Positions 1,438-57,215 of a stretch of 64,000 nucleotides of DNA are shown here, in pieces (the first letter of the stretch is position 1; every line of letters starts with the position of its first letter). Both the position numbers and the translations under genes were made by a program. This DNA is from a virus (taxonomy: Duplodnaviria > Heunggongvirae > Uroviricota > Caudoviricetes), in IMG/VR virus record IMGVR_UViG_2832442593_000001, positions 88,020 to 152,019 of that record; one strand, written 5' to 3'. The notes under the pieces are model-generated. The model was given only the letters and a program-made list of their open reading frames with translations. It ran no database searches and was not told where the DNA came from.

Positions 1438-2539
1438 CTGAATACCTCCTCCGCGGGGTAATTGGATTTTTTTTGCTTCTATTAACTACTATACAAAAAA
1501 GGCGTTTTTGGGACGCGGAGTTAAAGAAAAAGATGCATAAAGATTGAGAATTCTTTTGTGCATGTTGCTGAATGAAAAATAGCCAGCTGAAGTAGACTCT
1601 TCTGGCTGGCTTAGACCTATGCAGCAGTGCTTAGGTAGTAATACTGAAATAGATAAAGCCGACCATTAGAGACCTTGGCCGGCTGTATTTATGATTGGAT
1701 ACGCCCCTGGGATAGAGCAGGTATGGCGAGGTACGTCAATCATTGAAGAACCATTTTCGTTCTGGCGGCAGAATTGAGCTGTAATCGATTTTGACATGCG
1801 GATGGGAAATTATACCACGAGAATACAAAAAGCCAGTACAGGGCATTCTGAGGCGAATACAGGGCATTGTAGGCAATATGTGGAAATGCATGGAAACTAT
1901 AGGGGTGGGTTTTAGAGATCGCGGCGGCTAATTTATATAGCAGAGAACAATCATAGTAGAGCAAGAGTGTGTAGTGCTACATAGTGCTATAGGCAGTATT
2001 CCCTTCTGGCGGGAGATAAGGAGATGATAAGTTAGATACAGGATTGCATGGCAGCTGTAGACCTGCGTGACAGATGCATGATGGAGCTGCAGTAGAGCTT
2101 CCGTAGAGCTTGTGGCTGGCTATACTCGAGCTGACGGTTACAGCAGATTATAGGAATGCACCTTTTTCGAGTGTTCGGGAAAAGAGAGATGGCGAAAACT
2201 CGGGAACAGCGCACGAAATTGAGGAAACGGGGATTAAAGAGGGGAAAAGGGAGGGGGAGGAGAGCGAAAGTTCGGGGAAAAAGGGGAAAAATATGGGGTA
2301 GAGTGAGATGAGGCAACTACCCTGCCTAAAAATAGGAAAAGAACTGAAAAAGTGTAAAATATGCCCCCTTTGATAGAAAAGAGGCATTTACACCGCTGAA
2401 AAGTGCCGAAACGCTGTTTTATAGTATACTCGAAAAGTCGGTTTTTGAGGCAGGCTGATTTTTTGAGGTGTCTTGACACCTATCTTTACGCCTGAAGTTG
2501 GATATATGAACAGTCACTCATATGTTATTTTCTTAACAT

Positions 2540-3470
2540 AGTGTTAGTGTATCCTGTCTCTGTCGATCGGCAGGACAGAGGGCACGACAGGGGCACGCGG
2601 TGCTGTCTGGGCGCGGTATATGCAGGGCGTGACAGAGGGCGAAAATTTCAAAAAATCGGCGCGCAGCACGACGGGAAAAATCTTTTTTGCGCGTTTTTTC
2701 TGATTTTTTCAAAAAACTTATCCGCGCTTAAAACCTGTATTTTCGCCTGTTTTCGCCTGTTTTGCGAACCCCTACGCGCGCGTGCGTTTTCATTATCTTT
2801 GAAAAAATTGCCCCCCAAATTTTTTTTGAAAAAGGGGGTTGACACTGTACGCACAGAGTGCTATACTGTGAGCACAGTCAAGGAACGGCACCCCGCCGGA
2901 CGCCTTGACAGGGACGGCGCTCACCGTGTAGGGCGCGGGGCGCGCCCCCTATAGCGTGAAGTCCGGACGGCGTCCGGCGTGAAGTTTGACAAGTGAACAG
3001 CGACTTCTCGGCTTGTACCGCTTTCCCTCGATAGAGGGCGGGCGGGTTTCGAGTGCACCGCTTTTCCCTCGATAGAGGGCGGGCGGGCGTTATGCTTGAC
3101 AAGCTGAGAAGAACAGCTGTGAAATACCGCTTTCCGGTCGTGCATAACGGAATTGCACGACTTTCCGCAAGCGCGTTGCGCTTGCGGGCGGGAAAGTGCT
3201 TGCGTTCTGCATATGCGGTTCAATCGTGACAGGTGCACCGCGCAGAGTAGACAAGAACGGGCTTAGCCCCCGCAAGCAAGCTACGTTTAGCGTGTCCGTG
3301 AAAACACGCACCAAAACCGCGCAAGCGGTGGCGGGGTTTGCGGTTATCCAAAACCGCGCAGGCAGTACATAACAGGTTTACCCCCGGGGGGTCCCCTTCA
3401 ATTGACCCCCCGGTGCCAATGCCGCAAGGCAAGTACATATTCACGCAAGGACTTTACATACTGGAGGTTT
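2540..3470 (+). promoter_or_regulatory. Early control region with several TTGACA boxes, GC palindromes and a duplicated ~30-bp element (3010-3040 / 3058-3090: CCGCTTTCCCTCGATAGAGGGCGGGCGGG)
   Basis: No credible ORF. TTGACA at 2839, 2905, 2984 and 3096. Palindromes GGGCGCGGGGCGCGCCCC (2930) and CCCCCGGGGGG (3385). Divergent gene orientation either side. Confidence 0.5.
2839..2867 (+). promoter_or_regulatory. Consensus sigma-A type promoter TTGACA-17-TATACT
   Basis: Perfect -35, 17-nt spacer and near-consensus -10; first plus-strand gene lies downstream. Confidence 0.6.
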
Positions 3471-3474
3471 TATT

Positions 3475-4206
3475 ATGACTATGGAAAACATTAAGAACGC
3501 TGTCAAGGCGTACAACGACAACCGCGACACCGCAACCGCAACCGTAAGCGCAAAGGCGTTTGCAAGCATTGATGAATCGTGCAAGGATATCAGCAAGCAG
3601 AACCGCAAGTCTGCTCTGTCTGCTCTGGTTGCTTCCGGCAACCGTTCCGACGTTCTCACCGCGTTCGTAATGGGGTACACTTACAACCGTGTATCCGTCA
3701 AGATTGACAAGGACACCGGCAAGGCGGTTGTCGCTGAGACGCCCACCGAATTGCAATGGAAGCACGCAAACAAGGCATACGCCGACGCTCACGACGGTGC
3801 AAGCCTTGCGGACTCTGTCGGCTTTAACGCCCTTGCCGACGGCTTTTTTGACCACCTGTTCAAGGGTCACGTCCGTCTTCAGGGGCGCGGTGGCAAGTCT
3901 GCCGTGCTCGTAAGCAAGACGAAAGACGGCGTTATCCGTGACACCCTCACGCCGGACTTTGAAGCAAACGACGCAATCAGCGCAACCAAGGCAATGAAAA
4001 TGCTGGCTGACCTGTACACGGCACTGTTGCCGGAAGATATCCGCGTAAAGCCGTGCAAGTGCGATCTGATCCGCCTGCACGACGCGGTTATCACTCCGCG
4101 CGGTGGCAAACAGCTTAAGTCGTCCTCTGACACTCTGTACAAGCAGTTCTTTATGGGCGTTCGCGTCCGTATCACTGGCAACGCATACGAGGTTTACGAG
4201 AAGTAA
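3475..4206 (+). CDS. Hypothetical protein (first gene after early promoters, GC-rich island)
   Basis: ORF track; GGAGG RBS 9 nt upstream. The antisense 3454-4371 ORF is judged a GC artefact. Confidence 0.6.
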   Translation: MTMENIKNAVKAYNDNRDTATATVSAKAFASIDESCKDISKQNRKSALSALVASGNRSDVLTAFVMGYTYNRVSVKIDKDTGKAVVAETPTELQWKHANKAYADAHDGASLADSVGFNALADGFFDHLFKGHVRLQGRGGKSAVLVSKTKDGVIRDTLTPDFEANDAISATKAMKMLADLYTALLPEDIRVKPCKCDLIRLHDAVITPRGGKQLKSSSDTLYKQFFMGVRVRITGNAYEVYEK

Positions 4207-4312
4207 CCGATAGGGCGGTGCAAACCGCCCATGCCCGCAACAGTCCAACCTCCACGCGGTGCGGGTGGATAACCAACCAATGGACTGAAAACAACGCAAA
4301 GGAAGTGCAATT

Positions 4313-4849
4313 ATGAGCTTTGAAAACTGGGAAAGAGGAACCCGCAACGCAAGCGGGGCAAAAGTCCGCACTTACACAAGTGACCTACCTCGACTTCGTA
4401 TGAGCACACCGAGATCTGGGTTTGTGCCTTTTCAGTACGAAAAAGCCTACGGCGTAAAGAATGCTGTAGGCTTTCGCATGGCGGAAAAGTGCACGCAGGC
4501 AAAGATTCCGGCATGGTCGCGCAAGAACGATTTTGCCGCAGTCCACGCGGCAACCGGTCGCAAACTACCGGAGAACGTAGCCGCGGCATTGTTCGTAGCA
4601 ATCGCAATGCCTACGAGCAAACGTGCCGTCCGCAACCGCCGCCACGCAATAAACGTGTTACGTGATTTCTGCGCAGGCGAAAACCACCGCGCAACGCAAG
4701 CCGCAATGATCGCGTTCAGTCGCGATTACGCAACCGTGAAGGTTTGCGGCGAAAACGCAGCAACGCCTGCAACCGTAGCAATCCTGGTTGACGGTCTGCG
4801 TCGCGCTGGCTATGCAATCGTAAAGCCGGCGCGTCCGGCATCTTTCTAA
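4313..4849 (+). CDS. Hypothetical protein
   Basis: ORF track; AGGAAG RBS. Confidence 0.55.
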   Translation: MSFENWERGTRNASGAKVRTYTSDLPRLRMSTPRSGFVPFQYEKAYGVKNAVGFRMAEKCTQAKIPAWSRKNDFAAVHAATGRKLPENVAAALFVAIAMPTSKRAVRNRRHAINVLRDFCAGENHRATQAAMIAFSRDYATVKVCGENAATPATVAILVDGLRRAGYAIVKPARPASF

Positions 4850-28759: not shown

Positions 28760-29224
28760 GTGTCTACAGATACGATCCGAAACGGTCAAGAGTGTTGTAG
28801 GTATTTTAAGCCGATTCTGCCGCAGGACAAAGAAGCCTACCAGTCGTGGGAGCATTACGAAGATGTTCTCCGGAACTGCGAGTTCAACCAAAAATGTGAG
28901 CACCATAAGAACTCCACTCACAAAACCTGTTCCTATGAGTATTGGCTAAGTATGTTGCTCCGCATTCCATGTTCCTTTGAGTACAAGGATAGAAAAGTAA
29001 AGGCTGTCATCGTTCCAAGAAATCTCTGGATTGACCAGACATTCAAGAACGGCAACAACGTGCAGTGCCACGGCCTGATTTTTGAGCCAATTCTCACGAA
29101 GAAGGGTCTAAAGAAGAAAGGCATCGAAAATTATGAATCGTTTGAATGCCTCAAAACAGTCAACATTTCGACCGGAGAAATCCAAGCTCCCGGCGAAATA
29201 ACGAAAGATAAAAGTCAAGTTTGA
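28760..29224 (+). CDS. Hypothetical Cys/His-rich protein; in frame with, and separated by TGA from, the downstream methyltransferase fragment
   Basis: ORF track; no MTase motifs recognised. Confidence 0.45.
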   Translation: MSTDTIRNGQECCRYFKPILPQDKEAYQSWEHYEDVLRNCEFNQKCEHHKNSTHKTCSYEYWLSMLLRIPCSFEYKDRKVKAVIVPRNLWIDQTFKNGNNVQCHGLIFEPILTKKGLKKKGIENYESFECLKTVNISTGEIQAPGEITKDKSQV

Positions 29225-30410
29225 GAGGAGAACGAGTTTACGAAACATCTGGGAGATATCACAAAGATAAACGGCCGCGAAGTTCCGGTCGTTGATTGCG
29301 TCATCGGCGGCAGTCCTTGCCAAGATGTTAGTATCGCAGGATCTAAAGCGGGATTTGAGGGGAAACGATCAGTTCTTTTCTTCGAACAGACACGACTTGT
29401 AAGAGAAATGAGGGAACACAGTGAAGCAGCTTCAGGGACAGCAAGTCCTCGATACATGGTATGGGAAAACGTCGTCGGAGCTTTTAGCAGCCACAAAGGA
29501 GAAGATTTCCGCCGAGTCCTCGAAGAAATCGCGAGGATCGTCGAACCAAATGCCGTTATTCCTGAACCTCCGAAGGGCAAATGGAGAACTGCCGGATGCG
29601 TCATGGGAGACGGATGGAGTATCGCTTGGCGCGTACTCAATGCACAGTTTTGGGGAGTCCCCCAGAGTCGCCGTAGAATCGCACTTGTCGCAGATTTTGG
29701 AGGAGAATCCGCTCCCGAGGTACTTTTTGAGCGCGAAAGCGTGTCAGGGAATTCTGAAGAGAGCAGAGCGAAACAAGAAGGAGCTTCCGGAGTATCTGCG
29801 GTTAGCGTTGGAGATCCAGTCGAGGACTGCATAATCCTTGATATGACGCACGCCTGTGATGTCATCAGAGAATGCGGTCAGCATGTGCCGACACTCCAAG
29901 CCCGCATGGGAACAGGCGGAAACCAAATCCCGCTTTTGTTCCGGCCGGTTTGCGTAGGAAATGGACAGGCAGCCAGTGCGACACATCTCACGTCAGATGT
30001 GTGCCGGACATTGAACTGCATGCATGACCCAATGGCGGTGATGGAAGTAAAGCCCGACAGGGATAAATTCATTCGACGGCTGACGCCACTTGAATGTGAA
30101 AGACTGCAGGGATTTCCGGACAACTGGACTGACATCGGAGAATGGACAGGCTCAAATGGGGAAGGGACATAAGGAGAGCGCAAACACGGGACGATACAAA
30201 GCGATGGGGAATTCTATCGCACTGCCGCCCTGGCGATGGGTACTTAGCAGACTGTATAAACAGTTCGGCCGACCGGCAACGATGGCAAGCCTGTTCGATG
30301 GAGTCGGAGGTTTCCCGTTGATTTGGAATGAACTCGGTGGCGAAACCATTTGGGCAAGTGAAATCGAAGAGTTTCCAATCGCGGTCACGAAACGGAGATT
30401 TGGCGAGTGA
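29225..30410 (+). pseudogene. C5 cytosine DNA methyltransferase, scrambled/disrupted: motifs IV (PCQ), VI (ENV), VIII (QxRxR) and IX in one frame, motif X then motifs I (LFDGVGGF) and II (ASEIE) in another
   Basis: GGSPCQDVSIAG...MVWENVVG...QFWGVPQSRRR...RLTPLECERLQGFPDNWT in frame 2 (29225-30172). YKAMGNSIALP...MASLFDGVGGFPLIWNELGGETIWASEIEEF in frame 0 (30090-30410). Upstream in-frame TGA at 29222; frameshift near 30150. Confidence 0.55.
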
Positions 30411-50721: not shown

Positions 50722-52053
50722 TTGAACGTAAACGACATTAAAAGCGTAGAGGGAGAGGCTGGAGTTATTGCAACATTGATCCAGCATCCAACTTACTATT
50801 TTTACGTTGAAGAGTTAAAGCCGGAGCATTTCACCGATCCGCAGAACCAGATAATTTATCTGGCGTTGAGTGAGCTTGCTAAAAGGGGTATAGAGAAGAT
50901 TGATGCTCTGAATGTCTTGAAGGTATTGGGAACAAAAAAAGCGACAAAACAGGCGGCTCAAAATCTCACTGTCGCATCAATCAACGAGATGATTGATCTC
51001 AGTCTGGTTGTTGCTCGCAATACGCCCGAGGAATATAAGTTGTTTGCCGATGATGTTCTGAACAAGGCTTTTCGACGTGGCGTCTATCAAAAATTGCAGA
51101 AATGTGAGCGGCTCTGCTTGACGGACGATGGAGGGGATCTCGGACAAAAGATTTATGCCGAGATTGACGAAACCGTTCTGAACTACAATCCTCGAAACGA
51201 TTTGCCTCTTTTCGGAGATATTGTCGATAAAATCTGGAAGGGTATTAAGGCGCGGCAGCGCGGCGATGCAAATATTATTGAGTTCCCGTTCCCAGAATTA
51301 AATCAGTATGTAGTCATAGAACCTAACGAAGTTGTTTGTTTTGCTGCCGTGCAAAAAGCAGGAAAGAGCGCCATGCTACTGACATGCACCGTGGACATGC
51401 TCAAAAAAGGGAAGAGTGTTTTATATGTCGATTCGGAAATTTCCGATGAACAGTTCACCAAGCGTATTCTCTCTCATTTAACTGGTATTGAATACAAAGT
51501 TATACGAGATGGTTTGTATACGGAAGAGCAGGAAAAACTTATCGACGAACAAAGAGCGTGGCTCAAAACGCAGAAATTTATCCATGTTTACACTCCTGTG
51601 CTCGATGAAAACACTCTTTTACTCGCGGCAAAACGCGCAAAACACCTTATTGATGTCGATTGCTGCGTGCTGGATTACCTGAAGCCCGCCGGTGGCACGG
51701 AAGCCTTCACGGTCTACGCTGAGCTCGGGAATATCGCCGATTGTTTTAAGAATCGTGTTTGCGGCGATCTGGGAATCTGCGGACTGACGGCCGCACAGGC
51801 TACGAAGTACGGCCAAATTGCGGATTCTGCTCGCATTGGACGTTCTGTCAGTACGGTTGTTACTATCACCAACAAAACGAAAGATGAAATCCGTAACGAT
51901 GGTGAGATGTGCGGCAATAAAAAAATGCGCGTCGCTTATAACCGAAACGGGGCTCAAATGAACGACGATGAATACATTGATGTCGATTTCAAGGGTGATA
52001 TTCTGACTTATTGTCCAGCGAGAAAACAGCACGACCCATACGCACCATATTAA
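50722..52053 (+). CDS. dnaB: DnaB-like replicative DNA helicase
   Basis: DnaB N-terminal domain pattern. Walker A AAVQKAGKSAML; RecA-fold C-terminus. Confidence 0.75.
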   Translation: MNVNDIKSVEGEAGVIATLIQHPTYYFYVEELKPEHFTDPQNQIIYLALSELAKRGIEKIDALNVLKVLGTKKATKQAAQNLTVASINEMIDLSLVVARNTPEEYKLFADDVLNKAFRRGVYQKLQKCERLCLTDDGGDLGQKIYAEIDETVLNYNPRNDLPLFGDIVDKIWKGIKARQRGDANIIEFPFPELNQYVVIEPNEVVCFAAVQKAGKSAMLLTCTVDMLKKGKSVLYVDSEISDEQFTKRILSHLTGIEYKVIRDGLYTEEQEKLIDEQRAWLKTQKFIHVYTPVLDENTLLLAAKRAKHLIDVDCCVLDYLKPAGGTEAFTVYAELGNIADCFKNRVCGDLGICGLTAAQATKYGQIADSARIGRSVSTVVTITNKTKDEIRNDGEMCGNKKMRVAYNRNGAQMNDDEYIDVDFKGDILTYCPARKQHDPYAPY

Positions 52054-52068
52054 AGGTAAGGAGTAATC

Positions 52069-53058
52069 ATGGAAATCAGAGATGTGGTAGAACAAATTGA
52101 TATCGTGGACTACATCTCCCAGTACCTCGATGTAGAGAGGCGAAGCGAGAACGAATACGTTGCGCTGTGTCCCTTCCATGACGAGAATACACCATCCTTC
52201 ACGATTACGCGCTCCAAAGGGTTGTATTACTGCTTCGGCTGCGGAGCTCGCGGCGACGTTGCCGATTTCGAGGTGCTGTACAACCATGTTTCTTTGCGAG
52301 AAGCGGTCAAGCGACTCAAAGCCTACGCCGGAATCACAGAGGGTGTGTCACTACCGTCCACCCATCTGGCGGCTGTACAGGCTCTCAAGAAGTACGCGCC
52401 ACGAAAAGAACAGAAAAATGTGTGTGAGCCACACAAAATCCTAGGGGAAAATGTGATGGAACAGTACGAGTGGCGACCGGAGAAGTTCCAGTCTTGGCTC
52501 GATGAGGGTATCCCTCTCGACCAGATGAAGCGTTTCGGTTACCGGTATGACGCGCTGTCAAACCGCATCGTTCACCCGATTCGATTGCCCGACGGCCAGA
52601 TTTTCAGTATCTGCGGACGCACGCTCGACCCCGATTTTAAGGAGAAAAAACTCCGCAAGTACACCTATCTCGTAAAGCTCGGAGCACTCGATACGCTGTT
52701 CGGGCTTTACGAAAACCGCGAAGCAATCCTCCGGAAGAAAGAGGTCATCCTGTTTGAGGGTGCGAAGTCCGTTCTCAAGGCGGCGGGCTACGGTTTCGAT
52801 AACTGCTGTGCCGTGCTGACCTCACACATCAACCCTTACCAGACCAAGATTCTCCTGCAACTGGGCGTCCGTATTGTCATCGCATTTGACGAGGAGGTTG
52901 ACCCGCGGCAGGATGGAGAAATCAAAAAGCTGAAACGCTTTTGCAGGGTGGATTGGGTTCGTAACCGTGACAACCTGTTGGGCGAAAAGATGGCTCCCGT
53001 AGACAATGGAGCGGAAGTTTGGAATGAATTGTATCAGCGAAGGGAGCGGCTATCATAA
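52069..53058 (+). CDS. DNA primase (DnaG-like: CHC2 zinc finger + TOPRIM)
   Basis: CPFHDENTPSF...YYCFGCGARGDV zinc finger. TOPRIM EVILFEGAKSV. Confidence 0.8.
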   Translation: MEIRDVVEQIDIVDYISQYLDVERRSENEYVALCPFHDENTPSFTITRSKGLYYCFGCGARGDVADFEVLYNHVSLREAVKRLKAYAGITEGVSLPSTHLAAVQALKKYAPRKEQKNVCEPHKILGENVMEQYEWRPEKFQSWLDEGIPLDQMKRFGYRYDALSNRIVHPIRLPDGQIFSICGRTLDPDFKEKKLRKYTYLVKLGALDTLFGLYENREAILRKKEVILFEGAKSVLKAAGYGFDNCCAVLTSHINPYQTKILLQLGVRIVIAFDEEVDPRQDGEIKKLKRFCRVDWVRNRDNLLGEKMAPVDNGAEVWNELYQRRERLS

Positions 53059-56000
53059 TTTTTCAGAACTACCACAAACACACAACCTACAGTAACCCTC
53101 GCGTCAGCGACTCGGTCGTGACCTACGAGGATTACGCCAAGCGTGCCGTCGAGCTCGGACATTCCATTCTGTCCAGCTGCGAGCATGGATGGCAGGGGAG
53201 ATATATCGAGTGCTACGACCTCGCAAAACAGTACGGTCTGAAGTTTCTCTTCGCCGCTGAGGCTTACTGGGTCTGGGATCGTCATGAGGAAGACCGTTCC
53301 AATTGCCATATTTGGATTGGCGCGAAGAATGAAAACGGCCGCGAATGGATTAACGAGGTTCTCAGTCAGGCGAACGAGGATGGTTTCTACTACCAGCCGC
53401 GACTGGATGAAGAGCTTCTCGACCTGCTTCCGGCGGGCGACGTTTGGATTACAACTGCCTGTGTTGCCGGATGGAAGTATCTCGGCGAAGAAGAAGAGCG
53501 ACTCAAGGCTCTTTGGAAGAAGCTGTACGACAAACACGGCGACAACTTCATGTTTGAGGTGCAATACCACCTCTCTGAACGGCAGAAAGAGCTAAACCGT
53601 TACATTCTGAATCTGCGGAAAGAAATTCCCGCGCCGATTATCATGGGCTGCGACAGCCACTACATCGAGGGAAACGGCGCAGAACTCCGCTCCGACTTCC
53701 TCGTTTCTAAGGAAGACCGCAAGGCTTACGATGACGAGGAAGAATGGTTTATGGATTACCCGGATGGCGACACTGCCGTCCGACGCTTCCGCGAGCAGGG
53801 TGTCTTGACAGAAGCTGAGATCACGGAGGCAATCGACCGGACAAACTGTTTCCTCGAAGTAGAGGAGTACGAGTGCGATATTTTCGACGACAGCACTAAA
53901 CTGTTCTCCCTTCATCCGGAGTGGACGCAGGAGCAGAAAGATGCTGAGTATATGCGGCTTGTCCAGCAGGGCTGGGAAGCGTATAAGCCAGAGGTTGACC
54001 CGAGTCTGTATCCGGTGTATGAGCAGGCTATTAAAGAAGAAACCGATACTGTTAAGCAATGCAGAATGAGCGACTACTTCATTGATGACTATTACATCAT
54101 GAAGCGAGGGAAAGAGCTCGGCGGTCACTTGACTACTACTGGTCGTGGCAGTTGTGTTGGATTCTTTACAAACAAGCTGCTCGGCTTTACCGAGGTTGAC
54201 CGAATTGCAGCCAAAGTAAAGATGTACCCCGAACGCTTTATGACTGCAGAACGTATCCTCGAAACGCAGAGTATCCCCGATCTTGACCAGAACGTAGCGG
54301 AGCAGGATATCTTTGCGGAAGGCCAGGCTCAGGTCTGCGGCCGTGATCATGCAGTTCAGATGCTTGCTTACGGCACGCAAAAAGCGTCAGCTGCGTGGAA
54401 GATGTTTGCGAAGTCCCAGAGCATCGACTTTGCTACGGCGAATGAAGTGTCCGCCCAGATCAAGCGATATGAGAACAAGCTCCATACCGTTGATGAGGAA
54501 GAGAAGGACACCATCGACATCATGGACTACATCGACAAACGATTCCATGACGTATACCTTCGCTCGACCGAGTATCAGGGAATCATCACAAGCTGGTCAC
54601 CGGCACCGTGTGCGTTCCTGCTGTATCAGGGCAGTATCCGCCGCAAGATTGGACTTGTGAAGATCAAGGACAAGATTTGCTGTGCGATGGATGGCCATTG
54701 GGCGGAGAAGAATCACTTCCTGAAGAACGACCTGCTCCGCGTTGCTGTGGTTGACCTTATCAATCGAGGCTATCATCGTGCAGGATTGAAAGTTCCTACT
54801 GTGAACGAGCTTCTCGATATGTGCCCACCAGATGACCCGGTATGGGGTATCTATCGTAAAGGCTGTACGCTTGGTATCAATCAGGTCGAGCAGCCGGGAA
54901 CCGCCAGCCGAGTAGGCGTTTACGCGCCAACCAACATTTCCGAGCTTTGCGCGTTCATCGCCGCGATTCGCCCGGGTTTCAAGTCGATGTACAAGACCTT
55001 CGAGAGTAGACAGGATTTCTCGTATGACGTTAAACCGTTCGATGAGCTTCTTCGTACCGATGAGTTGCCGCAGTCGTTCTGTCTGTATCAGGAACAGCAG
55101 ATGGCGGCGCTGAACTTCGCCGGTTTTCCGATGAAGGAATGTTACGCGGCGGTCAAGAATATCGCCAAGAAGCGTAAGGAAAAAGTCCTCGCATATCGCG
55201 AACGATTCATCGACGGATTCTCTAAGAAGCTGATCGAGCAGGAGCATTTGGACGAAAAGACCGCCATTGAAAAGACCGACATGGTCTGGAAGATCATCGA
55301 AGATTCAGCCTCGTATAGCTTCAATGCCTGTGTGTCGGGCGATACAAAAATTAAACGTTCGTCTAAAGGACAGTCCCGGTTTGAACCTACAATTGAGGAA
55401 ATGTTCTTGATTAAGAACGATTTGGAGTATGCGAAACGAACAAATCACTACCATCTGCACAGTAAGTATCTAAAAACGTATGGCTGCGGTTTATCGGTAT
55501 TTGAAGATGGAAGAATTCATCAGAACAATATTGTAGATATCGCCTATGCCGGAGAGCGTCAGACATACCGAATCATGCTTGAGAATGGCGCTTACATTGA
55601 CTGCACAGACAATCATAAGTTCCCAACACCTTCCGGAGAGAAACAACTGAGGGATTTATCGGTCGGAGATATCCTGTACGTCATGGGTTCTTATGAAAAG
55701 AACACAAACAAGTACACCTTCACAAACGGCAATTACAAGTCGAACTTTCCAAACCCCGGGCAGATGGGTTTTCAGAAACACCCCGATGGCCCAAGCGTCG
55801 TTTACGAGAGAGTCCGAGCTGAGAAAAAGAAAGAAAGATGTGCATGCGAAGTATGTGGAAAACCTTATACTGACGACTATCGCTTTGAACTTCATCACAA
55901 AGACTTTGATCGCACACACAATACGGAAGATAACTACACTTGGTGTTGTGTGAGCTGTCATAAGAAGCTCCATTTCGCTCATGGAAGAAACGCTCGGTAC

Positions 56001-57215
56001 GAAAAGGGGATTCCAACACTTCAGTATAAAATTGTCAGCATCGAGCCTAAAGCAATCGAGCGCGTGTATGACGTTGAGATGCTTTCGCCGTATCACAACT
56101 TTGTAACCGATACCGGCATTGTGACGTCGAACAGCCACTCCTATTGTGTTTCTTTGGACTCCCTTTACGGTGCATGGCTCAAACAGCATCATCCTCTCGC
56201 GTTCTATGAAACCTTCATGCGTATCATGGACGAGAAGGGAGACAAGGATAAGCTCGCCGCCGCCAAGGATGAAGCCGAAAGCTACTTTAATATCAAGTTC
56301 CCGCCGTTCAAATTCGGTCAGGATAACCGAAAGGTAACCGCAGACGAAGAGAACAACGCAATCAGCAACGCGCTGACCTCTATCAAGGGATTCAATAAGG
56401 CCGCCGCCGTTGCTCTTTATGAGCTCGGACAGGAGCCGCCGAAGTACCTTTCCGACGTTCTTCTGGCTCTCCGCCCAAAGAGCATTATGAAGTCCACGAC
56501 TGAACCATTGGCTCAAATCAGTTACTTCTCAAGCTACGGCAACGACCGCGAGGTTCTGAACATCATCTCCCTGTGCGAGGAGTTCGGATACGGTGCAAAA
56601 GCATCCATGCCGCGAGAGCGCGTTGATAACAGCTTTCTGGCTGATATTGTACCGAAGTACGCCGACGGTCTCAAGAAGGACGGCCAGCCAGCGACAAGAT
56701 ATACGTTCACGAGCCTGCAGATGAGTACCTTGAAAGACGAAAAAAAGCGGCTCGCGGCCGCTCTTAAAAAGAACCCAACGCCGGAACTGGAAGAACAGCT
56801 TCTCGCTGTCGAGCAGGAAATTGCTGAGGAACTGAAGCGAATCGTCGCTCAGGTGCTCCGCGAATGTGAAGACCGTGTACTGGCGGCAGGTATCGAAGAC
56901 CTTCCGTTCCGCGTGAAGATTGAGAACCAGCAGGAAATTCTCGGGTATGTGGACATCCGGACAGGCAAGGAAGAAGACCGCAGACTTGTTCTCGTGTCGG
57001 ATTTCCGGCCACTTTTGAGTAAAGACACCGGAAAACCGTGGGGTTATGCTTGCTTTACACAGTCACTTGGTTCTGGTAAGCGCATTCGATTGACGCTTCG
57101 ATCGCGGCAGTATGACCAGAATCCAATCAAAAACGGCAGCATCATTTACGTTGACCGATGCACGAAGAACAAATCCGGCTATTGGTATCTTGACCAGTAT
57201 CATCTGGTCGGCTAA
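53055..57215 (+). CDS. dnaE: DNA polymerase III alpha subunit (DnaE-type, PHP domain) containing an in-frame intein; likely non-canonical (AUA/AUU) initiation upstream of the first GTG
   Basis: PHP motif FQNYHKHTTYSNPRV lies upstream of the GTG at 53118, in frame, with AGGGAG RBS 8-11 nt before ATA/ATT at 53055/53058. Extein junction FNA|...|SHSYCVSL matches the conserved GYGFNKSHS motif. Confidence 0.8.
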   Translation: MIFQNYHKHTTYSNPRVSDSVVTYEDYAKRAVELGHSILSSCEHGWQGRYIECYDLAKQYGLKFLFAAEAYWVWDRHEEDRSNCHIWIGAKNENGREWINEVLSQANEDGFYYQPRLDEELLDLLPAGDVWITTACVAGWKYLGEEEERLKALWKKLYDKHGDNFMFEVQYHLSERQKELNRYILNLRKEIPAPIIMGCDSHYIEGNGAELRSDFLVSKEDRKAYDDEEEWFMDYPDGDTAVRRFREQGVLTEAEITEAIDRTNCFLEVEEYECDIFDDSTKLFSLHPEWTQEQKDAEYMRLVQQGWEAYKPEVDPSLYPVYEQAIKEETDTVKQCRMSDYFIDDYYIMKRGKELGGHLTTTGRGSCVGFFTNKLLGFTEVDRIAAKVKMYPERFMTAERILETQSIPDLDQNVAEQDIFAEGQAQVCGRDHAVQMLAYGTQKASAAWKMFAKSQSIDFATANEVSAQIKRYENKLHTVDEEEKDTIDIMDYIDKRFHDVYLRSTEYQGIITSWSPAPCAFLLYQGSIRRKIGLVKIKDKICCAMDGHWAEKNHFLKNDLLRVAVVDLINRGYHRAGLKVPTVNELLDMCPPDDPVWGIYRKGCTLGINQVEQPGTASRVGVYAPTNISELCAFIAAIRPGFKSMYKTFESRQDFSYDVKPFDELLRTDELPQSFCLYQEQQMAALNFAGFPMKECYAAVKNIAKKRKEKVLAYRERFIDGFSKKLIEQEHLDEKTAIEKTDMVWKIIEDSASYSFNACVSGDTKIKRSSKGQSRFEPTIEEMFLIKNDLEYAKRTNHYHLHSKYLKTYGCGLSVFEDGRIHQNNIVDIAYAGERQTYRIMLENGAYIDCTDNHKFPTPSGEKQLRDLSVGDILYVMGSYEKNTNKYTFTNGNYKSNFPNPGQMGFQKHPDGPSVVYERVRAEKKKERCACEVCGKPYTDDYRFELHHKDFDRTHNTEDNYTWCCVSCHKKLHFAHGRNARYEKGIPTLQYKIVSIEPKAIERVYDVEMLSPYHNFVTDTGIVTSNSHSYCVSLDSLYGAWLKQHHPLAFYETFMRIMDEKGDKDKLAAAKDEAESYFNIKFPPFKFGQDNRKVTADEENNAISNALTSIKGFNKAAAVALYELGQEPPKYLSDVLLALRPKSIMKSTTEPLAQISYFSSYGNDREVLNIISLCEEFGYGAKASMPRERVDNSFLADIVPKYADGLKKDGQPATRYTFTSLQMSTLKDEKKRLAAALKKNPTPELEEQLLAVEQEIAEELKRIVAQVLRECEDRVLAAGIEDLPFRVKIENQQEILGYVDIRTGKEEDRRLVLVSDFRPLLSKDTGKPWGYACFTQSLGSGKRIRLTLRSRQYDQNPIKNGSIIYVDRCTKNKSGYWYLDQYHLVG
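55329..56132 (+). other. Intein (268 aa) with embedded HNH endonuclease, inserted in the DnaE FNKSHS motif
   Basis: Begins with Cys (CVSGDTKIKR), ends HNFVTDTGIVTSN followed by Ser. HNH box CEVCGKPY...ELHHKD...NYTWCCVSCHKKLH. Confidence 0.75.

Follow-up and report, generated by a model that had tools for sequence, protein, structure and literature searches.

Initiation of translation at near-cognate codons behind extended Shine-Dalgarno (SD) sequences has been documented by start-site profiling and reporters in Staphylococcus aureus, where infC, ccpN and citZ use AUA and cvfC1 uses AUU, with an output that reaches about 10% of that from AUG, 30% at the most (PMC13009471). The start of ccpN is non-canonical also in Bacillus subtilis, and infC and pcnB of Escherichia coli start at AUU (PMC13009471). 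The finger domain of the DNA polymerase III alpha subunit, on the other hand, is a hotspot for inteins, with insertion points a-d and g situated within 75 residues (PMC4760082). The subject here is dnaE, the replicative DNA polymerase III alpha subunit gene of a Caudoviricetes phage, located in a stretch of 64,000 nucleotides (positions 88,020 to 152,019 of IMG/VR record IMGVR_UViG_2832442593_000001; hereafter the window, whose numbering is used unless a relative locus, with an L number, is named). With a probability of roughly 0.8, this gene starts at a non-canonical codon and harbours a mobile intein in its polymerase frame. Non-canonical starts and DnaE inteins are both known kinds of feature, and neither is unprecedented.

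Like the infC- and ccpN-type genes of Firmicutes, the phage dnaE combines near-cognate AUH codons (AUA, AUC or AUU) with long SD pairing (8 nt in the window) at close, optimal spacing, its non-canonical state is kept among relatives and an attenuated output is expected. It differs from the S. aureus cases in encoding a phage replicative polymerase instead of a host regulator, in the overlap of its start with the stop codon of the upstream gene (AUAA), whereby coupling may contribute, and in the recurrence of the phenomenon in many independent lineages and several replisome genes. An orthologue annotated by NCBI as 'PHP domain-containing protein' (P0002, Butyricicoccus sp. AM05-1, QUDG01000001.1) has junction DNA identical to that of the window and equally a non-canonical start upstream of its PHP motif, which is, however, set at ATT, one codon downstream of the ATA preferred here, and its allele is without intein.

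The start region of dnaE

The dnaE product matches Pfam PHP (E = 5e-14) at residues 6-172 counted from ATA 53055, beginning at profile position 2 of 164, and in canonical order PF07733, PF17657 and PF14579 for the Pol3_alpha catalytic, finger and HhH regions, while NCBIfam DnaE models cover residues 3-757 with scores under their equivalog cutoffs, which places the protein on a divergent phage branch of DnaE. The H-x-H of its PHP domain (53073-53081) belongs to an N-Y-H-x-H core, the residues of which are invariant in an alignment of six lineages with 47-57% identity, and lies upstream of GTG 53118, the first canonical start codon. Beginning with the stop that closes it upstream, the frame reads TGA(53025) ATT GTA TCA GCG AAG GGA GCG GCT ATC(53052) ATA(53055) ATT(53058) TTT CAG AAC TAC CAC AAA CAC, and no ATG, GTG or TTG is found in it between TGA 53025 and GTG 53118. 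The sequence-only reading of this DNA had placed YHKHTTYS upstream of the first canonical start in the same frame and had noticed the absence of ATG, GTG and TTG between stop and motif; both statements are borne out by the sequence and the list of open reading frames (ORFs). Among the long ORFs of the window that are led by an SD, dnaE is the only one without a nearby canonical start.

The alignment of DnaE homologues which that reading had proposed for fixing the N-terminus points the same way, as homologues with an unambiguous ATG start begin 4-7 codons ahead of H-x-H (MSNFIFQNYHKH, MDNLIFQNYHKH, MRIFQNYHKH), not after it. The DnaE proteins of Geobacillus virus E3 and of Lactococcus 949-group phages such as AM1, about 40% identical to that of the window, have an equally short N-terminus before H-x-H (LRYNNYHKH; MTDLNALTYQNIHSH), but, unlike the window gene, canonical TTG or ATG starts. 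A sequencing error that removed an ATG, the refutation considered at the time, is ruled out because the ATG-less junction is seen in many independent contigs and assemblies.

The predicted ribosome-binding site AGGGAG is present at 53041-53046 and proved to be part of a longer SD (Table 1). With the spacing aligned from the GGAGG position, ATA 53055 stands at 7 nt, ATC 53052 at 4 nt and ATT 53058 at 10 nt. In a sister clade (L003, L007, L021 and L027), a GTG sits at the position of ATA 53055, after an equal 8-nt spacer behind GGGAG (GGGAG-CAGATCAC-GTG-ATT-AAA-TTT-TAG in the sister clade, GGGAG-CGGCTATC-ATA-ATT-TTT-CAG in the window). As the end of the primase gene is aligned in both clades, TGA in the sister clade versus TAA in the window, so that GTGA corresponds to ATAA, and as the spacer is equal, ATA 53055 matches the GTG start base for base. 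The AUA/AUU initiation first proposed is thereby supported by both SD spacing and sister-clade alignment, with ATA preferred over ATT; comparison of the sequences makes AUA 53055 the probable initiation codon, whereas AUU 53058 would be a rather unlikely one and AUC 53052 an improbable one.

A start at AUU 53058, as chosen by NCBI, or at AUC 53052 would leave the mechanism unchanged and alter the codon only, and of all alternatives this is the one to be taken seriously, albeit clearly less probable than AUA. Protein P0002 begins with MFQNYHKH at ATT on identical DNA, AUU is a classical non-canonical bacterial start (E. coli infC, pcnB) and the SD is within reach of all three codons. AUA is nevertheless favoured over AUU because six close relatives (L006, L017, L019, L020, L025 and L028) have GTT in place of ATT while retaining ATC-ATA; moreover, the 10 nt and 4 nt distances of ATT and ATC compare with 7-9 nt in 12 of the 14 scored SD-led non-canonical lineages, and the sister-clade GTG aligns with ATA.

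Table 1. Features of the primase/dnaE region of the window
Feature	Position	Strand	Basis or remark
DnaG-type primase gene	52069..53058	+	Pfam Zn_ribbon_DnaG, E = 1.4e-26; ORF list; gene order common to relatives
In-frame TGA closing the dnaE frame, 5' limit for any start	53025..53027	+	
Extended SD GAAGGGAG, 8-nt pairing with the 16S 3' end, duplex about -12 kcal/mol	53039..53046	+	Kept in window clade and sister clade
Three consecutive near-cognate candidates ATC-ATA-ATT	53052..53060	+	ATA 53055-53057 best supported; ATT 53058 chosen by NCBI
First PHP metal-binding motif YHKHTTYS, His codons 53073 and 53079	53070..53093	+	N, Y, H and H invariant in the six-lineage alignment; upstream of the first canonical start
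GTG picked by mechanical ORF callers, rejected as start	53118..53120	+	GTT in L003 and L007; constrained codons upstream
DnaE N-extein (PHP, pol3_alpha and finger domains), from the preferred ATA	53055..55328	+	Pfam PHP, DNA_pol3_alpha, DNA_pol3_finger; NCBIfam DNA polymerase III alpha models
Class-1 intein, 268 aa: Cys1 (CVSGDT), block B TDNH, block F VYDVEMLSPYHNF, end ...GIVTSN, then Ser+1	55329..56132	+	
Putative HNH homing-endonuclease domain, CEVCG...ELHHKD...HNTEDN...CVSCHKKLH	55788..56000	+	Motif with flanking CxxC pairs
DnaE C-extein, begins SHSYCVSL..., with HhH region; TAA stop 57213-57215	56133..57215	+	

Translation from GTG 53118, which would yield a DnaE without its first PHP motif and leave the open stretch upstream non-coding, is very improbable, even though this GTG is the first canonical start and its equivalent was called in 118 of the 120 closest database homologues, a choice which implies that those contigs likewise lack a canonical start further upstream. 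No SD precedes the codon (ctcggtcGTG), it is GTT in L003 and L007 of the sister clade, and the 20 codons 53061-53120 show strong purifying selection between the window and these two loci (10-11 synonymous changes, one Tyr-to-Phe and one CAG/TAG exchange). Furthermore, the matches to Pfam PHP and to the NCBIfam DnaE models set in at residues 3-6, ahead of GTG 53118, and H-x-H is invariant across the family. The pattern of substitutions indicates that the stretch upstream of GTG 53118 is under coding constraint and hence translated. With the choice of GTG, standard gene callers shorten the polymerase by 21 codons in those 118 of 120 entries and drop the metal-binding motif.

The mechanism proposed for the window would start from co-transcription of dnaE with the primase gene and from a near-cognate start, most probably AUA 53055, behind the 8-nt extended SD at optimal distance. 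The primase stop TAA (53056-53058) overlaps this codon by a 4-nt stop/start arrangement (ATAA); given such an SD and the AUAA overlap, ribosomes could arrive by direct SD-dependent binding of the 30S subunit as well as by termination-reinitiation. Since the initiator tRNA would be mismatched to AUA at the third position, the output would be only a fraction of that from AUG, and translation of the polymerase would be attenuated, possibly in coupling with that of the primase, with the likely effect that DnaE is kept scarce. A phage-encoded initiator tRNA for AUA is not found in the window, as the tRNA(CAU) at 24164, with a paired G1-C72 and no GGG/CCC anticodon stem, is of the elongator type; neither does the primase/dnaE junction show RNA structure, a promoter or a terminator beyond chance expectation.

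Two smaller observations concern the same region. A two-codon mini-frame TTG-GAA-TGA (53019-53027), in frame with dnaE and just ahead of its start region, follows a GGAG at a distance of 7 nt and reads ATG-GAA-TGA in L002 and L006; in L017, its TGA is CGA, whereupon the gene caller lengthened DnaE by 12 residues. Several non-canonical lineages possess consecutive AUH codons at the start (ATC-ATA-ATT, ATA-ATC, ATC-ATA and ATT-ATT-ATT; window, L013, L012, L038 and L067), which might offer several chances of initiation or be mere AT-rich spacers.

Weak starts in the phage family and in other replisome genes

For a comparison across the phage family, 178 relative loci were collected and grouped at 80% identity by average-linkage clustering into 52 clusters. 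Twelve lineages (window clade, L012, L013/41, L032, L034/36, L038/39, L043, L052, L070, L081, L143 and L144) are devoid of any ATG, GTG or TTG between the upstream in-frame stop and the H-x-H of DnaE. After a strong SD, at an aligned spacing of 5-10 nt, they present ATA (6), ATC (3), ATT, CTG or ACG (one each), and these codons align with an ATG or TTG of relatives, as in ATA AGA ATA TTT CAA versus ATG AGA ATT TTC CAA. In another 3-4 lineages, the only canonical triplet falls within the SD itself and ATT or ATC stands at the proper distance. The non-canonical clusters are scattered among ATG and TTG clusters, which speaks for repeated switches.

A programmed -1 frameshift at the end of the primase gene, by which a primase-DnaE fusion would arise and dnaE would need no start of its own, has very little probability. 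The primase frame is +1 relative to that of dnaE and the two overlap at 53028-53058, so that a -1 shift would indeed fuse them, and an SD-like element can stimulate frameshifting. However, the overlap contains no X XXY YYZ slippery heptamer, a stimulatory RNA structure is absent (fold z-score -0.16), the sister clade has its own GTG at the ATA position, distant relatives have an SD and an ATG for dnaE itself, downstream of different stops, among them TAA stops in another arrangement, and the SD spacing in the non-canonical lineages is typical of initiation.

Scarcely credible, too, is the loss of the start codon (ATG or GTG to ATA) from a dnaE that is silent in a decaying prophage. Such a loss would take only one transition from ATG to ATA, and the element is integrated as a prophage in at least one isolate genome; yet more than 120 homologues, with 87-99% identity and mostly synonymous changes, retain the full-length open frame (1097-1386 codons), many copies reside on contigs of 100-175 kb classified as viral, the strong SD is kept and the non-canonical state recurs in at least 12 independent lineages. 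As dnaE is clearly maintained, it is not a pseudogene. Least probable of all is a start at TTG 53019 (ATG in L002, L006 and L017), two codons ahead of TGA 53025 and with GGAG 7 nt upstream, followed by read-through or recoding of that TGA, which is CGA in L017 (caller output MERIVSEKGAAIIVFQNY), since TGA is an ordinary stop in the window (10 of 43 ORFs), the host, a Clostridium-class bacterium, reads code 11, the CGA is the by-product of a synonymous change, AAT to AAC, in the primase frame that overlaps there, and homologues with clear ATG starts are without such an N-terminal extension.

Several points weigh against a non-canonical start and, in particular, against AUA. ATC, ATA and ATT stand side by side and defy a rigorous distinction; NCBI has chosen ATT. 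In general, AUA ranks with the weakest of the near-cognate starts. Its T and A form the first two bases of the primase stop codon, and its conservation within the clade is for that reason not independent evidence; the placement of the DnaE N-terminus at AUA is to be read as a conclusion from sequence comparison. Among the twelve lineages, L032 and L052 have TAG as the upstream stop, which is possibly read through in TAG-recoded phages. The mean SD score is 12.1 for the 14 SD-led non-canonical lineages scored versus 9.8 for canonical starts, a comparison that is partly circular because the position of the SD guided the codon calls.

Weak starts extend beyond dnaE. In distant lineages, the gene upstream of dnaE is a primase-helicase fusion, in which start and zinc motif are exactly 40 codons apart and the start codon is ATG (2), GTG (1), TTG (5), ATT (5), ATC (2) or ACG (1). 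Its start is consequently ATT, ATC or ACG in 8 of 16 lineages, preceded by very strong SDs (L015 1034-2995, L122 522-2486 and 14 others at about 500-2490), and the N-terminus I-[LF]-[VIF]-[DE]-K-E-x-I is conserved.

A strict survey covered the loci with 10-kb flanks and the window for genes that have a strong SD and, in the interval from the upstream stop up to 15 codons downstream, lack any canonical codon. Such non-canonical starts occur in 7 of 17 clusters of replisome genes, namely 3 of 8 for dnaE, 2 of 3 for primase-helicase, and 1 of 3 each for primase and DnaB-like helicase, and in none of 108 other families (155 clusters); the survey also found an ERCC4 nuclease, HNH/AP2 endonucleases and one methyltransferase, and a few further matches looked spurious. 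Individual SD-led ATC, ATT or ATA genes without canonical alternative are located at L211 5451-6926, L225 5889-6914, L251 13509-14045 and L191 14755, their products being a DnaB_C helicase, a protein without Pfam match that looks primase-like by eye, an ERCC4 nuclease and a DNA methyltransferase.

By these counts, weak start codons are unusually frequent among the replication genes of this phage family; a literature search, which was limited and is therefore weak evidence of absence, revealed no earlier account of AUH starts in such genes of phages. More tentative, and rather unlikely at present, is the further step that a weak AUH codon combined with a strong SD constitutes a selected, lineage-wide control of replisome genes (DnaE, primase-helicase, primase and DnaB-like helicase) in a large family of phages of gut and rumen Firmicutes. 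If true, such a device would keep replisome proteins at low stoichiometric levels or tie their synthesis to the state of infection, for example via lowered fidelity of initiation factor IF3. The data suggest that Firmicutes phages tune replisome dosage through the choice of the start codon, an idea testable in Butyricicoccus sp. AM05-1 as a cultured lysogen. The error of gene callers seen for dnaE probably affects primase-helicase and helicase genes of related phages as well.

The sister clade, whose dnaE starts at GTG, presents a conserved single in-frame TAG at codon 5 in all four contigs (L003, L007, L021 and L027), where the window has CAG. Two more in-frame TAGs occur in its DnaB-like helicase gene (L003 499-1986, L007 580-1986), and each of the three stands opposite a Gln in one or more close relatives, wherefore TAG is a sense codon in the sister clade, probably for Gln. 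The TAG at codon 5 suggests a second route to restricting DnaE synthesis, seen in one lineage and with the corresponding tRNA(CUA) known from the window phage; if true, the sister clade would reach a comparable brake by GTG plus a TAG read by a suppressor such as this tRNA.

The intein in the polymerase finger domain

The polymerase frame is interrupted by an intein of 268 aa, the boundaries of which, as first read from the sequence, are exact: the intein-less homologues P0002, P0003 and P0006 (1097-1129 aa) show a single gap against the window protein that corresponds precisely to 55329-56132. The intein motif scan suggested at the time passes the curated cutoffs with both TIGR01445 intein_Nterm (28.7 bits, cutoff 24.5) and Pfam Intein_splicing (PF14890, 36.3 bits, cutoff 35.8), and PDB matches, weak in sequence, were obtained to gp41-1 and DnaE inteins. 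Of the residues named in the sequence-only reading, Cys1 is present (CVSGDT), but the supposed HN/S junction (the slash marks the junction) is in fact SN/S (...IVTSN/S), with Ser replacing the penultimate His, and the 'HN' belongs to block F (YHNF). Likewise, the host motif given as FNKSHS is FNA/SHS here; empty alleles read FN[SIA]/SH[SA]Y. The HNH box is recognized by its motif and by PHROG HNH families (best E = 1.6e-6), with Pfam HNH reaching 19.8 bits, marginally under its cutoff of 21.4.

Among close relatives, the site exists in three states, namely empty, with a mini-intein of 141 aa without the HNH segment, and with the 268-aa HNH intein. The mini-intein carries the same replacement of the penultimate His (ITSN/S), which makes Ser at this position a family trait. 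The intein of the window is 95% identical in DNA to that of L003, although the dnaE backgrounds agree by 70-85% only, whereas it shares 68-82% with that of L008 in backgrounds that are 95-99% identical. This contradiction between intein and background is a signature of horizontal homing and indicates that the intein has moved horizontally between related phages.

From conserved residues and the comparison of alleles, the precursor is predicted to undergo protein splicing, whereby the intein would be excised from the finger domain by means of Cys1, the terminal Asn and Ser+1, restoring the FNA-SHS motif. On the same grounds, the putative HNH nuclease would perform homing cleavage and spread the intein into empty dnaE alleles of co-infecting relatives.

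The intein resembles described inteins of the PolIII alpha finger domain in being class 1 (Cys1) and in residing in that domain by the FNxSHS motif (PMC4760082). It is contiguous and carries an HNH domain, unlike the cyanobacterial split DnaE intein, and it has Ser both as penultimate and as +1 extein residue, unlike the DnaE inteins compared (PMC4760082). A limited literature search, hence weak evidence of absence, turned up no publication in which the FNKSH site is named as that of an intein. The cyanobacterial split site lies a few residues upstream, before CFNKSHS. New at a single DnaE site are a compact HNH-bearing allele and a natural mini-intein of 141 aa, and both forms, with Ser at the penultimate and +1 positions, may interest protein engineers.

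A possible second intein-bearing gene of the phage group is suggested by the NrdD homologue of the close relative L018 (8429-9390), which comprises at least 706 aa compared with 396+ and gives a faint Intein_splicing match. In Lactococcus phage AM1 (L256, KY554768.1), DnaE is annotated as two coding sequences (2483-4654; 5843 onward) about 1.2 kb apart with small ORFs between them, and in phages 949 and P1048 the DnaE match is likewise in two pieces; an intron or some other mobile element may interrupt the dnaE of the 949 group.

Phage, host and neighbouring genes

The gene order around dnaE, which matches that in relatives, is PD-(D/E)XK nuclease, DnaB-like helicase (50722-52053), DnaG-type primase, DnaE, ThyX and NrdD. 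Close relatives are found on the viral contigs mentioned above, and one relative's locus occupies the middle of a contig 709 kb long from Butyricicoccus sp. AM05-1, an isolate of the Clostridia, from which it follows that the element is an integrated prophage and the phage temperate. The carrier, temperate and about 100-130 kb in size, has Butyricicoccus-like Clostridia as hosts; no near-identical DNA turned up among the phages of GenBank.

The DnaB-like helicase of the window (about 50820-51960) shares about 50% DNA identity with all close relatives, compared with 92-99% for the flanking genes, and looks like a swapped module, as known for mosaic genomes.

The 43 long ORFs on the plus strand of the window end with TAA (32), TGA (10) or TAG (1). 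At 24570-24663 (+), the window encodes a tRNA with anticodon CUA, which reads TAG and is labelled 'Pyl' by ARAGORN. In this tRNA the variable arm, of 20 nt, is unusual, A1 and C72 are mismatched and position 73 is G. TAG as a sense codon hardly lengthens ORFs over the 64 kb and was rejected for the window, as was TGA, a regular stop; recoded genes, if any, are therefore probably located outside the window. Directly upstream of tRNA(CUA), a stretch of 56 nt at 24508-24563 (+), not called by ARAGORN, matches the Rfam tRNA model with 46 bits, a value that exceeds the gathering score; it is possibly a tRNA of truncated or atypical form.

A C5 cytosine methyltransferase ORF at 29225-30172 (+) comes after an in-frame TGA, with 28760-29224 upstream in the same frame, and its first ATG is downstream of the catalytic Cys. 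The Pfam profile is matched only from position 44 onwards, motif IV (GGSPCQ) is present and motif I is missing in all three upstream frames. ACG 29240 was considered as a second non-canonical start in the window and rejected, as it belongs to this methyltransferase fragment without motif I; the ORF may represent a truncated gene, a split gene or a pseudogene.

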